64,000 nt of DNA from positions 69,750,001 to 69,814,000 of the forward strand of contig OX597815.1 in assembly GCA_951406725.2 (NCBI GenBank). Reading direction: 5' to 3'. The stretch comes from Octopus vulgaris (lineage: Eukaryota). Shown here in pieces: positions 51,056-60,380 of the stretch (position 1 is its first letter; each line of letters opens with the position of its first letter). The notes beneath the pieces are model-generated. The model was not told where the DNA came from. It ran no database searches and worked only from the letters and a program-made list of their open reading frames with translations. The position numbers and the translations under genes were made by a program.

Positions 51056-51354
51056 GGCCTATAGGAATTAAGAAGGAAAACAGTGCTCATGACATGTCAT
51101 AAGGCCTCCCGAAATTGGCGGGAGAGAGAGAAAGGTGTCTTCAGACTGGAGACTGGACCTAAATGCTTGCAACAGAGCCAGGTTCACTAAAGACATCTTA
51201 GGTCGGAACTTATCCCACTTTCCATGTTGTATAAAGGAGCAACAGTACAATGTTAAGCCCTCACCCTTAAACGAGGCACCATTCAGAATGTCGGAGCGCT
51301 TTAGCAATGTACATATATAAGACACACACACACACACACACACACACACAAGCA

Positions 51355-52082
51355 TAGGTGCAGGCGTGGCTGTGTGGTAAGAAGCTATAGGCGCAGGCGT
51401 AAGAAGCTTGCTTCTCAACCACATGGTTATGGCAGTGGTACCTTGGGTAAGTGTCCTCTACCAGAATTTAGTACGGTATTATCCATATAATTTCAAAGTA
51501 AGGGGATTAAAATCAAAATAAGCAACAAGGATATCCAGAGGTAATGCAGCACGATCGTTTCATGCAACTCCATTTAATTGAACAGTGCAATCATTACATC
51601 AATTTAAAATGTAGACCAATCGTCAGCTGCACAAAGACATAGAATTTTATTAAATGAGAACAATAAATTAGAACACATTAGTATAATTATACTAATGTGC
51701 CCATCTGTTCTAATTCAGTTAAATTCTATGTCTTTGTGCAGCTGAAGATTGGTCTACATTTTAAACTGATGTAATGATTGCACTGTTCAATTAAATGGAG
51801 TTGAATGAAACGATCGTACTGCATTACCTCTGGATATCCTTGTTGCTTATTTTGATTATGTGTGTGTGTATGCTGTTGTGCCTGTGTTTATCCTCCCCAC
51901 CATCGCTTGTCAATCGATGTTGGTGTGTTTACGTCCCCGTAACTTAGCGGTTCAGCAAAACAGACCGATAGAATAAGTACTAGGCTTACAAAGAATAAGT
52001 CCTGGGGCCGATTTCTTCGACTAAAGGCAGTGCTCCTGCATGGTTGCAGTCAAATGACTGAAGCAAATAAAAGAGTAAAAGA

Positions 52083-52085: not shown

Positions 52086-52117
<32 letters not shown>

Positions 52118-52120
<3 letters not shown>

Positions 52121-52462
52121 AGGCGCAATGGCCCAGTGGTTAGTGCAGCGGACTTGCGGTCAAAGGATCGCGGTTTCGATTCCCAGACCGGGCATTGTGA
52201 GTGTTTATTGAGCGAAAACACTTAAAGCTCTACGAGGCTCTGGCATGGGGTGGTGGCGAACCCTGTTATATTCTTTCATTCTTTTTCTTCCTGTATTGCA
52301 AAAGTCCGACCTTGTCATACGCTGAATCTCCCCGAGAATTACGTTAAGGGTATGCGTGTCTGTGGAGTGCTCAGCCACTTGCACGTTAATTTCACGAACA
52401 GGCTGTTCAGTTGATCGGTTCATCTGGAACCCTCGTCGTGGTAACCGACAGAGTGCCACGAC
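52118..52462 (+). mobile_element. tRNA(Arg)-like SINE (family B), full length
   Basis: AGGAGGCGCAATGGCCCAGTGGTTAG...GGTTTCGATTCCCAGACC...CGTCGTGGTAACCGACAGAGTGCCAC. Confidence 0.9.
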
Positions 52463-52585
52463 ATATATGCATGTATATGAAGTCAAATCAAATAGTGATA
52501 TTTAACAGGAAATTCATCCATTACGTAAAACTTGTCCATTAAAGCATTTCAACTAATTATAACTGTACGCCAATATGTATGTATG

Positions 52586-52635: not shown

Positions 52636-53614
52636 TAATTTTAATCCAAACGGGAAAACAAAAAAACAACAACAATGGAACAATTACAGTATTATTATTA
52701 ATAGGCGCTCAGGAAATGGAAGCAGGAAGGTATGACGTTTCGAGCGGAGCTCTTCGTCGGAAACATAAAGAAGGAAGAGAGAGGAAAGAAAGATCCCAAA
52801 GCGGGCAACAGGGATAGAGAAAAAAAAAGACTGGTGTTTACGAGTTACACATGGTGAAAGGCGGAAGTTTACGATAACAAGAGCAAAGTAGGTTTTTAAA
52901 GCCAAAGAGTGGAGACAAGGTTGGTAACGCAACAGATGTGTGTGTATGTGTGAGTGTGTGCGTGTGCGTGTGTGTATGTGTGTGTGTGAGGCGAGATAAA
53001 AAAACAAAAAATATATGTATGTGTTAGTGTGTGCGTCTGTGTGTAGGCGTGTGAGGTAGGGCGAGACAGTGGTAGGCAAGCAGACAGTGGTCAGTAGTAA
53101 GAAAAAGAAGGAAAGAGGAAGGGAGGGAGGGGAAGGGGTGGGGGCGTATGTAGCGTGCCAGCGTGTGTTGAGTAGTAGTGTGTGTGTGTGTCCAGTGTCG
53201 TGGTAGTATTAATGGCGAGTAGATTGAATGTGTGTAAGAGTAATGTATATATTTAAGCAATGTGTGTATATGTGTGCGCGTGTGTGTAACAAAAAAAGGG
53301 GGGTTAAGGAAAAAGGACTACAGCTGAGGGGAAGATGGAAGAGTGGTCCCGCGGAGACGGGCGTGGGAAAACCCAACGACAAGCGACGGTCCCAGGAACG
53401 AGCGGGAGGTCTCGTCGGGTCCAAGAGCGAGGTGCATGCGGCGCGTATGCGTGCGCGAACCGGCGCAAGCGCGTGTGTGCGCGCGCCTGCGAGTATGCGC
53501 GTAAGTATGTATGTGTGTGGATGTGTGAGTGTGTCTGTGTGTATGTCTGTGTGTCAGTGTGTCCGATGAATGTATGTGAGTATGTGTGTATATATGTGTG
53601 TGCATAGATGTATG

Positions 53615-53661
<47 letters not shown>

Positions 53662-55957
53662 GTGGGTGTGTGGAAGTGTGTGTATGTGCATGTGTGTGCG
53701 CGTACATACAGGTGTGTGAGTGAGTGTGTGTGTGTGTGTATGTATGTGTGAGTGTGTATGTATGTGTGTGTAAGATGCATGTATGTGTATGGGTGTATGT
53801 ATGTGTGTGTGTATGTATGTATGTGTACGTGCGTGTGTGTTTGTGTATGCGTGTAGGTGTGCGCGTGTGCATGCATGCATGCATGTGCGTATGTGTGTGT
53901 GTGTGCATGTGTGTGGGTATATATGTATGTGCGTATATGTGTGTGTATGTGCGTACATGTGTGTGTGTGTATGCATGTGTGTGTATGTAGGTGTGTAGGC
54001 GTGTGTGTATAGGTGTATGTATGTAAGTATGTATGGGTGTGTCCGTGTATGTGTGTGTATGTATTTGTGTGTATGTAGGTGTGTGGGCGTGTGTATATGT
54101 GTGTATGTAGGTGTGTGGGCGTGTGTATATAGGTGTATGTATGTATGTCTGGGTGTGTCCGTGCATGTTTGTGTGTGTGTGTGTATGCATGTGTATGTAG
54201 GTGTGTGTGTACGTGTGTAATGTATGTGTGTATGCGTGTGTGTGCGTGTGTATGCGTGCGTGTGTGTATGTAGGTGCGTGTGTATGTGTGTGGGAGTGTA
54301 GGTGTGTGTGTGCGTGTGCGTGTTTATGTTGGTGTGTGCGTATGTGAGTGTGAGTGTATGGGTGTTTGTCATGCATGTGTGTGCGCGTGCAGGTGAGTGT
54401 GTGTGTAAGTATGTGTGTGTGTATGTTTGTGTGAGTGTGTATGTGTGTATGTCTGTGTGTATGTATGTGCGTATAGGAGTATGTAGGTATGTGTGTGTGT
54501 ATGTGTATGGGTGTATGTATGTATGTGTGTGTGCATGTGTATAAGTATATGTGTGTGTGCGTATGTGTGTGTATGTGTATGTGTGTGTGTGCATGTATGT
54601 GTGTATGTATGTGTGTAGGCGTGTGTGTGTAGATGTATGTATGTATGGGTGTATGTCTGTGTGTGTTTGTGTGTGTGTGTAGGTAGGTGTGTGTGTCTGA
54701 GTGAGGGTATGGCTGTGTAGGTGTGTGTGTGTGTATGAATGTAAGTGTGTGTGTGTACAAGTGTATGTAGGTGTGTGTGTGTGTGTATGTGTACGTGTGC
54801 GTGTGTATGTGTGTGTGTGTATGCGTGTGAGTGTGAGTGTATGGGTGTATGTCTGTGTGTGTGTATGTCTGAAGTAGGTATGTGTGTGTATGTATGTATG
54901 TATGTGTGTGTGCGGGTATATGTGTGTATGTGTGTGTGTGAGTAGGTGTGCGTGTATGTATGTGGGTAGGGATGCATGCGAGTGTGTGGGTATGTATGCA
55001 TACATACGCACGCGCACATCCGAAGCAAGCCCACACACACGAAGCGCGCTCACGCACACAACGCACAAGCAGTACAACGCAAGCCCAAGGGGCCGACCAA
55101 GCCCCCAGCGCGCGCCAAGGCGCGCGAGCGCAAAGGCTCTCGAACGCCCCGCTACGCGGGAACCGAGGATCCATCAGCCAAAACCGGAAAGCAGAAAAGA
55201 GGGGGGCTGCCTGGATGCAAAAAGGTGTATGTGTGTGTGCATTCAGTGTAAGGGTGTGCATGTGTGGGTATGTACGTATGTGTGTGCCTACATGTATGTG
55301 TGCATGTGTGTGTGTGTGAAGTATGTACGTGCGGTGTGTGTGTGTGTGTGTGTGTGTTTGTATGTGCGTATGTATGTGTGTATGTATGTGTGTGTGTATG
55401 TATGTCTGTGTGTGTGTGTGTGTGTGTAAGTGTGTGTGTGTGTGTGTATGTATGTATGTGTGTGTGTATGTGCATGTTGGTTTGTATGTTAGTGTGTGTA
55501 TGTGCATGTTGGTTTGTATGTTAGTGTGTGCATGTATGTCTATAAGTGTGTGTGATTAAATGTGTGAATGTATGTACGTAGATGGGGCTACGTATGTGTG
55601 TGTGTGAACAGGCGTGTGGGAGGTAGGTGGGTGGGTGTGTGTGTGTGGTGTATCCGGGAAAAAAAAAAAAAGGGGATCTCAAGAGGAGGGGGCTGTGTTA
55701 AGTCCGTGTGGGGTGGTAGTTTGTAGGGTGAAGATGTAGCGTTGCTCCAAGTGGAGCCTGGAAAGTGGGCGACCATTGTGGGGGGCGAGACCAAACACTG
55801 AGATGTCATCTAGGGAATGGCCGGCCGAGCGGAAGTGGCGTGCGACGGGAGAAAAAGAGTGTAGGCGAACGTCCCTCAAGTGTTCAGTGAAACGGTCGGA
55901 CAACCGGCGTCCCGTCTGTCCTACATACAGCATCCCGCATAGGTTGCATTTAATGCA

Positions 55958-56006
<49 letters not shown>

Positions 56007-56215
56007 TAATCCAAACAAGAAAACAAAAAAAAACACAACAACGCAAGGATGTGGAACAAATAAAGTATTATTGGACGCTCAGGAAAGAAGGGAATAAGGA
56101 GGGTTTAACGTTTCGAGCGGAGCTCTTCGTCGGAAACATAGGAGAAGGAAGATCCCGAGAAGGGAAGACAGAGGTGGTACTCACGAGGTCACATACTGAA
56201 AGACGGAAGTAGTAA
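52636..56215 (-). mobile_element. Penelope-like element remnant: pLTR end, (TA)n, GIY-YIG fragment, ~2.7 kb CA-rich tract, second pLTR end
   Basis: Homologous hammerhead-bearing termini at 56000-56210 and 52640-52860 in the same orientation as the GIY-YIG ORF; junctions lie in (TA)n. Confidence 0.7.
55679..55963 (-). pseudogene. PLE GIY-YIG endonuclease domain (5'-truncated)
   Basis: IYCIKCNLCGMLYVGQTGRRLSDRFTEHLRDV...VARHFRSAGHS...LEQRYIFTLQTTTPHGLN: GIY/YIG equivalents, CxxC, catalytic R, E and terminal GLN. Confidence 0.88.
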
Positions 56216-56217
56216 GG

Positions 56218-56279
<62 letters not shown>

Positions 56280-57447: not shown

Positions 57448-57466
57448 CATATATAATATGCATATA

Positions 57467-57897
57467 GGCGCAGGAGTGGCTGAGTGGTAAGTAGCTTGCT
57501 TACCAACCACATGGTTCCGGGTTCAGTCCCACAGCGTGGCACCTTGAGCAAGTGTCTTCTACTAGAGCCTCGGGCTGACCAAAGCCTTGTGAGTGGATTT
57601 GGTAGATGGTAACTGGAAGAAGTCCGTCTCATACATAAATATATGTGTTTGTGTGCGTGCGTGTGTGTGTGTGTGTGTATATGTTTGTGTGTCTGTGTTT
57701 GCCCCCCACACACACACACAACATCGCTTGACAACCGATGCTGGTGTGTTTACGTCCTCGTAACTTAGCGGTTCGGCAAAAGAGACCGATAGAATAAATA
57801 CTAGGCTTACAAAGAATAAGTCCTGGGGTCGATTTGCTCGCGGTGCTCCAGCATGGCCACAGTCAAATTACTAAAACAAGTAAAAGAATAAAAGAAT
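57467..57897 (+). mobile_element. Family A CORE-type SINE, full length
   Basis: GGCGCAGGAGTGGCTGAGTGGTAAG (A-box), GGTTCAGTCCC (B-box), CACCTTGAGCAAGTGTCTTC, and tail. Confidence 0.92.
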
Positions 57898-57977
57898 ATA
57901 TATATATATATTGGATCGGTAGAGTCATCTGGCAGTATGTATTCTTGGGAAGTTCTAATTGTTAATTCTTACCTGTA

Positions 57978-58710: not shown

Positions 58711-60330
58711 TCAGTAGTTTTATTTTTATAATGTGCTTTCAATTCACTACCGAGCGCAGCTCTGTGTGCCTTAGGTATGTGCTGTGATTTGTTGTGATAC
58801 TCTGATGGTTATTGTATGGAAAGTGTTCTGCGTAGGATGTGTGCAGTGCCTAGTAGTGCAATTTTCTGTATGTTATATGTGTTTGTAAGTCCTGGTGTTT
58901 TTGTTATGTATTTGTCTGAATATTTTTTTATCATGCCTAATGCACCTACTATGATAGGAATTGTTTCTGTTTTTAGATTCCACATTCTGGTTACCTCTAT
59001 TTCCAGGTCTTTGTATTTTGAAAGTTTCTCCAATTCTTTTAGAGACACGTTGTCATCTGCTGGTATTGATACATCAATTTGAAAGCATTTTTTTTTTCAT
59101 GATCTCTGACAACTATATCTGGTCTGTTGGTCTTAATTTCTCTATCTGTGTGTATCGGCATATCCCAGAGTATGGTTGCTTTCTCGTTTTCTGTGACCTT
59201 TTCTGGTGTGTGTCTATACCATCTTTTTTCTGTTGTTATTCCATAATGTTGGCATAGCTTCCAGTGTACATAGGTTCCAACTCTGTCATGTCTTTGAATA
59301 TATTCCCTCTTAGCCAGGACTGGGCAGCCAGAGATAATATGATTTATTGTTTCTTGTCCATCTCCACATATTCTGCAGTTACTAGTTATATTTCTTTTCA
59401 TTACATGTTTTTGGTAATTTCTGGTGGGGATTCTTTGGTTTTGTGCTGCAATTAAAAATCCCTCTGTCTCTGCTTTGAGTCCTGAGCTTCTCAACCATTG
59501 CTGGGATTTTTCTTTGTCTATTTCTTTTGCATTTAGTTTAGTCTAGTATTTACCATGAAGGGGCTTTTCTTGCCATCGTTTTATCATGGTTCGTTGCTAT
59601 TCTATTTTTAGTTTGGATTTCATTTGTTTCATAGTTTTTTGTTGTTTCTTCATCTTCTTCTTCTTTTTATTCATATTTATTAGGTGGTATGATTTCTTGT
59701 TTGTATTTGTCAGCTTCCTTAAATACTGAGAACAGTTTTTTGTTTTGCTCGTGTTTTGCCGCTATTTGTATCATTTTTCCTTCCTTCTGAAGTAGATATT
59801 TTTGAAGTCCTATGGTGGTTATTTTATAGTAGTTTTCCAGATGTATAAGGCCTCTACCACCTTCTATACGTTGTATATATAGTCTTTCTATGTCAGATTT
59901 TGGGTGATGCATCCTAGATCCTGTCATTATTTTTCTTGTTTTCCTATCTATTTCGGTCAGTTCATTTAGTGTCCAGTTAAGGATATTGTAGCTGTAACTT
60001 ATAACTGGGACAGCTAAAGTGTTAATACATATTATCTTGTTTTTAGCATCGAGCTCTGTTTTTAGTATTGATCTAACTCGTCTATAATATTCTTTTTTTA
60101 TTTTCTCTTTCATTTATGTGTGTTGTGTCTTATCTAGTTCATGGATTCCTAAGTATTTGTAAGTTTGGCTTTGGTCTAATTCTTTTATTTCATTGGTTTT
60201 ATCTAGTGTGATGTTGCTACTCTTAACTAGTTTTTCTCTTTTCATGGTTACTTTGGCGCATTTTTCTAATCCAAATTTCATATCTATTTCTTTGGTAAAT
60301 CCATGAACTGTCTTTAATAGTGTTTCCATT
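58711..60330 (-). mobile_element. 5'-truncated Dong/R4-clade non-LTR retrotransposon (RT C-terminus, CCHC finger, restriction-like endonuclease)
   Basis: MKFGLEKC, YKYLG, RLY..R.EGGRGL, CRICGDGQETINHIISGC, RHD, NRPDIV..IDV, EKLSKYKDL; few stops or frameshifts; flanked by (TTA)n at both ends. Confidence 0.92.
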
Positions 60331-60334
60331 AGTG

Positions 60335-60380
<46 letters not shown>

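Follow-up and report, generated by a model that had tools for sequence, protein, structure and literature searches.

A G-rich 3' UTR island of a Neptune-type Penelope-like element in Octopus vulgaris is probably an inherited fossil of RNA hyper-editing

Inosine is read as G by reverse transcriptase (RT). Clustered A-to-G changes attributed to ADAR have been described in avian retroviruses (Rous-associated virus as well as avian leukosis virus), including an inverted-repeat case in which nearly 50% of the As were changed (available part of PMC12925331), and in bovine leukaemia virus, where a cluster of ~70 bp was found in three integrated proviruses (available part of PMC8025556). APOBEC G-to-A editing of endogenous long terminal repeat (LTR) elements is also known (available portions of PMC4866542 and PMC2873906), and the former reports none for 19 invertebrates; the APOBEC-centred screen of PMC4866542 was filtered for G-to-A, and its accessible text does not mention ADAR. 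Coleoid transcripts show widespread editing aimed at repeats and 3' UTRs, according to the part of PMC9068888 at hand. Among Penelope-like elements, the features of the Neptune type are described in PMC8557442 and PMC4209133, as far as their available sections go, and PMC11167929, in the part available, deals with RT initiation and has no bearing on the island reported here.

The window, meaning the whole stretch of 64,000 nucleotides analysed here, comes from the O. vulgaris genome, of which a 2.8 Gb assembly in 227 contigs was searched. The features treated below are collected in Table 1. We refer to the family of the window copy as A (subfamilies A1 and A2), to its sister copies as B (groups B1 and B2) and B', and to a more distant family as C. 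A Penelope-like element with a GIY-YIG ORF end on the minus strand had been proposed around the patch, and this was upheld by a PF01541 match and by the full ORF of a relative (L034), an 884-residue stop-free frame. PF00078 was present in the ORF homologues, many of which also contained PF01541. The GIY-YIG motif is preceded by a linker, C-X4-C-X2-C, fitting the CX2-5CXXC definition, which also applies to Nematis and Naiad and not to Neptune alone (PMC8557442, available part). In 4 of 20 loci the hammerhead-like motif occurs twice, ~6.17 kb apart, forming partial-tandem pseudo-LTRs, and the target sites of the element have (TA)n flanks. By its ORF architecture, linker, pseudo-LTRs, hammerhead-like motif and targets, the element would fit the Neptune type. 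Both hammerhead-like motifs of the window have C for U at core position 4; the motif is identical in families A and B, and a further variant is found in family C. Elsewhere in the window there are broken RT fragments of a non-LTR retrotransposon (58809-60335, minus strand), an inverted repeat of ~150 nt at 51560-51860 (arms at about 51560-51700 and 51700-51860, by eye), and repeats at 51350-51460, 51870-52070, 52110-52490 and 57465-57900, which recur in the flanks of other loci and which we take to be SINE-like.

Table 1. Features of the window around the G-rich island
Feature	Positions	Strand	Remarks
5'-truncated Neptune-type Penelope-like element, subfamily A1	52636..55964	-	sits in (TA)n; a complete unit has ~6.17 kb
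Remaining 3' ORF end, GIY-YIG endonuclease domain	55679..55963	-	PF01541 E 0.0016, below curated cut-off
CA-rich 3' UTR, ~3 kb	52636..55678	-	about 40% A, 40% C and 5% G outside islands and 3' end
G/U-rich, A-poor island (the patch)	55005..55218	-	probably descends from a ~190-nt 3' UTR segment, inverted and A-rich in sister family B'
Island core	55084..55218	-	alignable to the inverted A-rich homologue
UG-rich island tail	55005..55083	-	reverse complement of the ordinary CATA/CA tract adjoining the segment in B'
Second G-rich patch, same UTR	53321..53500	-	suggestive A-to-G excess against B', same orientation
Minimal hammerhead-like motif in 3' pseudo-LTR	52737..52760	-	Rfam match absent
Short 3'-end fragment of sister family B	56003..56220	-	same hammerhead-like motif at 56110-56133; led to the A-rich homologue

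The composition given in the preliminary description was reproduced on recounting. Between 55011 and 55200 there are 8 T, 72 C, 60 A and 50 G, with 24 CpG and no TT, and the 150-nt interval with the lowest T content in the whole 64 kb falls in the patch (6 T, with 10 T in the runner-up). The spared Ts had been taken as a sign of ADAR, on the ground that on the sense strand they are As behind a G. As a count this is correct, C lying directly 3' of 6 of the 8 Ts. Given 38% G on the sense strand, the pattern had P = 0.04, and the test repeated on the A1 majority gave P = 0.07 and on subfamily A2 P = 0.49, so that the 5'-G argument from the eight Ts alone is weak. The patch matched no Rfam family at gathering score, and neither hammerhead nor SECIS cores were found in it on inspection by eye.

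The same description had proposed that a hyper-edited RNA was integrated at this very locus. Within family A, the paralogs share the C-rich sequence, an outcome that the description itself had named as refuting its proposal. The 40 scored matches (the best 40 of 434 candidates, window included) were 97-100% identical, the other 39 being 97-99% identical, and the C-rich state was found in 14 of 14 aligned paralogs. A 30-mer degenerate for A/G had 262 matches in the genome, of which 255 were all-G, and five others listed had a single A; for A1 and A2 together, a degenerate 30-mer with up to three mismatches allowed gave 377 matches. With two forced As, the 30-mer had 0 matches in the genome (controls run), and an A-rich paralog inside family A was therefore rejected. 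The bases themselves hold in public read sets: contigs of four runs, with four organism labels, carry the same letters, so the patch is no assembly artefact, and C-to-T variants at ≥5% were absent from the patch in these contigs. The genome gave 0 matches to a variant motif taken from the reads. Public runs under five organism labels contain the element. The T at 55138 is private to the window copy, with C in 14/14 paralogs and in the three public runs covering the site.

Strand-specific A>G clusters, which had been suggested as something to look for among element copies, were absent from the A1 rows. Among the private substitutions of 69 subfamily A1 rows (40 of them chosen solely by the exact 30-mer) there was neither an A>G excess nor a pure A>G cluster, and A1 intervals rich in A>G held equally many C>T. 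In the ORF, the 40 copies chosen by the exact 30-mer had 0.39 A>G changes and 3.0 G>A changes per 1000 sites. Ongoing fixation of edits in young copies was rejected, as the 69 A1 rows bear no footprint of it. The patch thus belongs to the regular 3' UTR of a young Neptune-type element and is not specific to this locus. That the particular insertion in the window came from a hyper-edited RNA, or that the patch is an artefact, has next to no probability: the composition is as the idea expects, but the other 39 scored copies, the 255 exact 30-mer copies and the agreement of the four runs refute it, and the T at 55138, for which every aligned paralog has C, points in the reverse direction.

We reached subfamily A2 through leads from the public-run contigs, and family B (85% aa) through the fragment of it in the window. 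L175, a B copy anchored to its own ORF end, contains a homologous island that is likewise G/U-rich and runs in the same orientation; 0/300 shuffles reached its score. Among the matches listed, there were about 30 near-full-length island matches with 68-86% identity, and the 11 of 40 listed island matches examined in sequence form the groups B1 and B2, B2 being intermediate between B1 and A. As the window Gs are G at 57 of 64 columns in the B1/B2 copies, the G-rich state is older than the A subfamilies. The fraction of A is about 0.33-0.37 in the core of B', 0.06-0.11 in B1/B2 and 0.05-0.07 in A. On the sense strand, C replaces U stepwise (0.15-0.19 in B1, 0.20-0.22 in B2, 0.26-0.27 in A2 and 0.29 in A1). 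Family C (68% aa; L066-L080) is a second Neptune-type family, with 55 of 56 scored matches stop-free and a 3' UTR of 0.9 kb that is C/T- and CA-rich; the island was not found in the three family C UTRs read. One family A copy (L164:1-851) has lost the whole island by a deletion between short direct repeats. In another (L149), the island has a 5' end of A1 type and a 3' end of A2 type, and L132 also mixes A1 and A2 letters; these mosaics point to recombination between the subfamilies.

The counterpart of the island was found in B'. At five independent loci, three of them full-length, B' copies hold a segment of ~190 nt that is inverted relative to the element, as oriented by the hammerhead motif, and that is A-rich when read on the island strand. 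It could be reached only through B1, because the window form has drifted too far. The inverted-segment homology between B' and B1 had z scores of 10-16. Over 99 core columns (104 columns minus two ambiguous blocks, an A run and a variable repeat), the B' majority (3 rows) and the B1 majority (7 rows) were identical at 78 and differed by 17 A:G, 0 G:A, 0 C/T and 4 transversions (p 1.5e-5), the informative A sites being only 27 and coming from three B' rows. All 104 columns gave 18 A:G and 0 G:A. Under flat scoring, the 24 B'/B1 pairs had on average 19.0 A:G, 0.6 G:A, 1.4 C:T and 0.7 T:C per pair. The alignment (A6) was made without L180 and L185; L180 entered the homology-z and flat-scoring tests, and L185 the homology-z test only. 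Outside the segment, transitions were balanced: one B' copy (L081) compared with L175 showed 10 A:G, 6 G:A, 12 C:T and 17 T:C (Fisher 9e-6), and another (L083) showed 1 A:G, 11 G:A, 17 C:T and 11 T:C. In the tail of the island, there were 8-11 A per 45 nt in B' and 0-4 in B1. In these alignments, nearly all differences are A:G, and they are strand-specific and restricted to the inverted segment.

Three other approaches were set aside. A local alignment of the window patch after G-to-A collapsing gave nothing decisive; a weak same-strand match of the 3' third of the patch to B' was superseded by the antisense homology; and a Markov model of sense text plus A>G fitted best (-1.86 vs -2.06 bits/nt) yet did not beat composition by itself (about -1.78).

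The core of the window copy itself differs from B' by 18 A:G and 0 G:A, with 21 G:G and 6 A:A, plus 17 C/T and many transversions; the C/T and transversion differences were gained later than the A:G ones. The preliminary suggestion that turning C back to T restores the original text therefore holds in part: 18 Gs of the window core correspond to A in the homologue, and 21 are G there as well. On the plus strand, the Cs that fall on B' As lie at 55086, 55093, 55094, 55098, 55102, 55103, 55111, 55115, 55121, 55123, 55125, 55131, 55137, 55164, 55178, 55184, 55185 and 55211, a list that is approximate because the alignment of the window with B' reaches a z of only 4.5-5.2.

A motif with six diagnostic sites, which cannot match A or B2, had 88 matches in the genome, and the copies were bimodal (counted by eye): 71 were in the A state, with 0-1 G, and 17 in the G state, with 5-6 G. 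One copy missed by this motif (L187, C15:62098025) has an inverted-type junction and B'-like letters. Over 70 nt it differs from L083 by 15 A:G and 0 G:A, and a run of seven As appears in it as an A/G mix. It retains As that were lost in B1 and lacks one A that B1 keeps. A fully unedited copy with an inverted-type junction was not present among 19 matches.

The neighbours of the changed bases were compared with those favoured by known deaminases. As with a 5' A were changed in 7/7 cases (p 0.026), those with a 5' G in 2/6 (p 0.15, not significant) and those with a 5' U in 1/4; As with a 3' G were changed in 3/3, and the leading A of a run was often spared. In coleoid AA sites, the downstream A is edited first (PMC8891338, available part), and both the 7/7 after 5' A and the sparing of first As accord with this rule. 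The 5' preference of ADAR is stated with U equal to A in the accessible part of PMC11120146, and the 1/4 after U runs against it. A combined neighbour score gave p 0.02, with a ranking whose 3' order differs from that in the same part of PMC11120146. Read in the other direction, the changed Gs were 0/4 in GA, 6/13 in GG and 7/13 in GC context. The neighbour context would thus fit ADAR in part, and it does not fit APOBEC. A_deamin (ADAR-type) domains were found at four genome loci, and APOBEC_N (PF08210) had no match in the genome, a search in which divergent invertebrate enzymes could be missed.

These contexts bear on the opposite history, in which the G-rich island is ancestral and B' arose by re-inversion together with a strand-specific burst of G-to-A, through cytidine deamination of cDNA or C-to-U changes on its own RNA. 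A tree of the ORF end plus UTR start groups B' with B1 (100/100), which makes G in B1 and A the parsimonious ancestral state; it is unrooted, and the ORF tree proper lacks a B1 ORF and so does not place B1 by ORF. If the root lay between A and B and there had been no recombination, the G state would be ancestral and B' derived, an argument that recombinant copies such as L149 weaken. B' copies also seem no older than B1 in a 32-mer (36/71 identical), and A/G clusters in retroelements are usually taken as APOBEC editing, going by the available parts of PMC4866542 and PMC2873906. The deaminase context is nevertheless absent, no GA being changed and GG-rich stretches being left intact; no APOBEC_N match was found, within the reach of that search; and the invertebrate LTRs surveyed (available part of PMC4866542) are without such editing. 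The reversal would also have to turn (CG)n into (CA)n and to make a pure A run out of a mixed A/G one, and decay of CpG would yield C:T differences too, which are absent between B' and B1. We regard this history as unlikely. The B' state is ordinary CA/CATA text with a tail continuous with the UTR, and the other state has CG repeats, both of which speak for A-to-G, as does the intermediate copy L187; we infer this direction with the root of the tree not fixed.

Gradual loss of A after the inversion, with selection favouring an RNA domain that is folded or rich in G/U and with no burst of editing, was considered along with the folding of the island. In family A, a structure model of 39 pairs is 97.8% paired and includes two double changes, A1 and A2 differ by 15 C/U vs 3 A/G (CG/TG 9 vs CG/CA 1), and short motifs persist across A and B, all of which such selection could explain; there are also A-to-T changes, about 5-6 per pair and partly in the ambiguous run. 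Against this, single-sequence folding of the island gave z near 0 (-0.7, -0.1), families A and B have no consensus fold (-8.9 kcal/mol, covariation -0.16), and divergence is faster in the island than at four-fold sites (0.115 vs 0.074), so that a conserved structured RNA is not established. Moreover, gradual change does not predict 0 C/T beside 17 A:G between B' and B1, nor copies that are bimodal. We consider gradual loss improbable.

The patch is, in our view, probably an inherited fossil: an inversion led to double-stranded RNA, ADAR hyper-edited it, and the edited RNA founded a lineage, with no such event at the locus of the window. The editing mechanism first put forward for the window insertion fails for that insertion and is favoured at this older level, where the A-rich inverted homologue differs from the island in a nearly pure A:G, strand-specific and segment-confined manner. 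The first part of the history is observed, in that the B' segment is oppositely oriented and has A at sites that are G in B1, B2, A2 and A1. It would have begun with the inversion, in a single element, of ~190 nt from the CA-rich 3' UTR. RNA with the inverted piece could then pair with normally oriented transcripts in a long duplex covering just that piece, in trans or, through tandem read-through, in cis; alternatively, the new UG tail could pair with the flanking CA tracts, in which no editing was visible. As the A-rich strand of B' folds no better than shuffles (z 0.5), the duplex partner is deduced. About 60% of the As would have been deaminated by ADAR, so that CA repeats became CG repeats and runs of A became runs of G. 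The RT of the element would copy inosine as G, an established chemistry, and the copy would integrate in the germline. Its descendants would have served as masters of B1, B2, A2 and the young A1, with further loss of A and C/U exchange at many sites, presumably in that order. The CpG-rich island has spread to about 400 loci.

There was probably more than one round of editing. The second G-rich patch of the UTR, compared with B' in the same orientation, has 24 G:A vs 1 A:G at a z of 4, in sequence of low complexity where antisense alignments reach a similar z; it is possibly a second editing event. Its 5' half resembles a CA repeat after A-to-G change. A broader reading, which we hold only tentatively and at somewhat less than even confidence, is that ADAR acts in this animal as a heritable and recurrent germline mutagen of retrotransposon masters: inversions in Penelope-like 3' UTRs would give sense/antisense duplexes that were hyper-edited more than once, and the edited RNAs would have founded the active lineage and, at about 400 loci, made CpG islands out of CA microsatellites. 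Repetition is suggested because the set of changes in L187 differs from that in B1 and the second patch may be another event.

If the fossil reading is true, the genome encodes a record of A-to-I editing in which edited forms, unedited forms and intermediates occur together in one assembly. It would show a route for RNA editing to become heritable without selection on host genes, and a way to build CpG islands from CA repeats and to spread them. The inversion serves as a natural control: turned one way, the bases are beyond the reach of ADAR, and turned the other way, the same bases are exposed to it. This suggests a simple screen in which retrotransposon subfamilies are compared for A/G clusters that lie at inverted segments.

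In the titles and abstract openings of the partial literature covered, we came across no ADAR-type cluster described as fixed in the master lineage of a retrotransposon. With the Neptune clade, the element shares an RT with C-terminal GIY-YIG, the CX4CXXC linker, partial-tandem pseudo-LTRs, a minimal hammerhead motif and (TA)n targets; unlike the Neptune elements in the portions of the literature searched, it has a microsatellite-like 3' UTR of 3 kb with an inverted, A-to-G-shifted island. LTR retrotransposons edited by APOBEC, as described in the available parts of the sources, likewise show one-type, strand-biased mismatch clusters between genomic copies, but theirs are sense-strand G-to-A changes in GG/GA context in vertebrates, whereas the changes in the island would be A-to-G, are without GG/GA context and coincide with an inversion. 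The A-to-I edits of coleoids are in RNA only, and the pattern of the island is in DNA. What retroviral hypermutation by ADAR would have in common with the island are clusters of A-to-G change that entered DNA through reverse transcriptase; the retroviral cases are rare somatic or cultured-cell copies, whereas the island belongs to a non-viral Penelope-like element, is fixed in the genome and has been inherited by successive subfamilies at about 400 loci.
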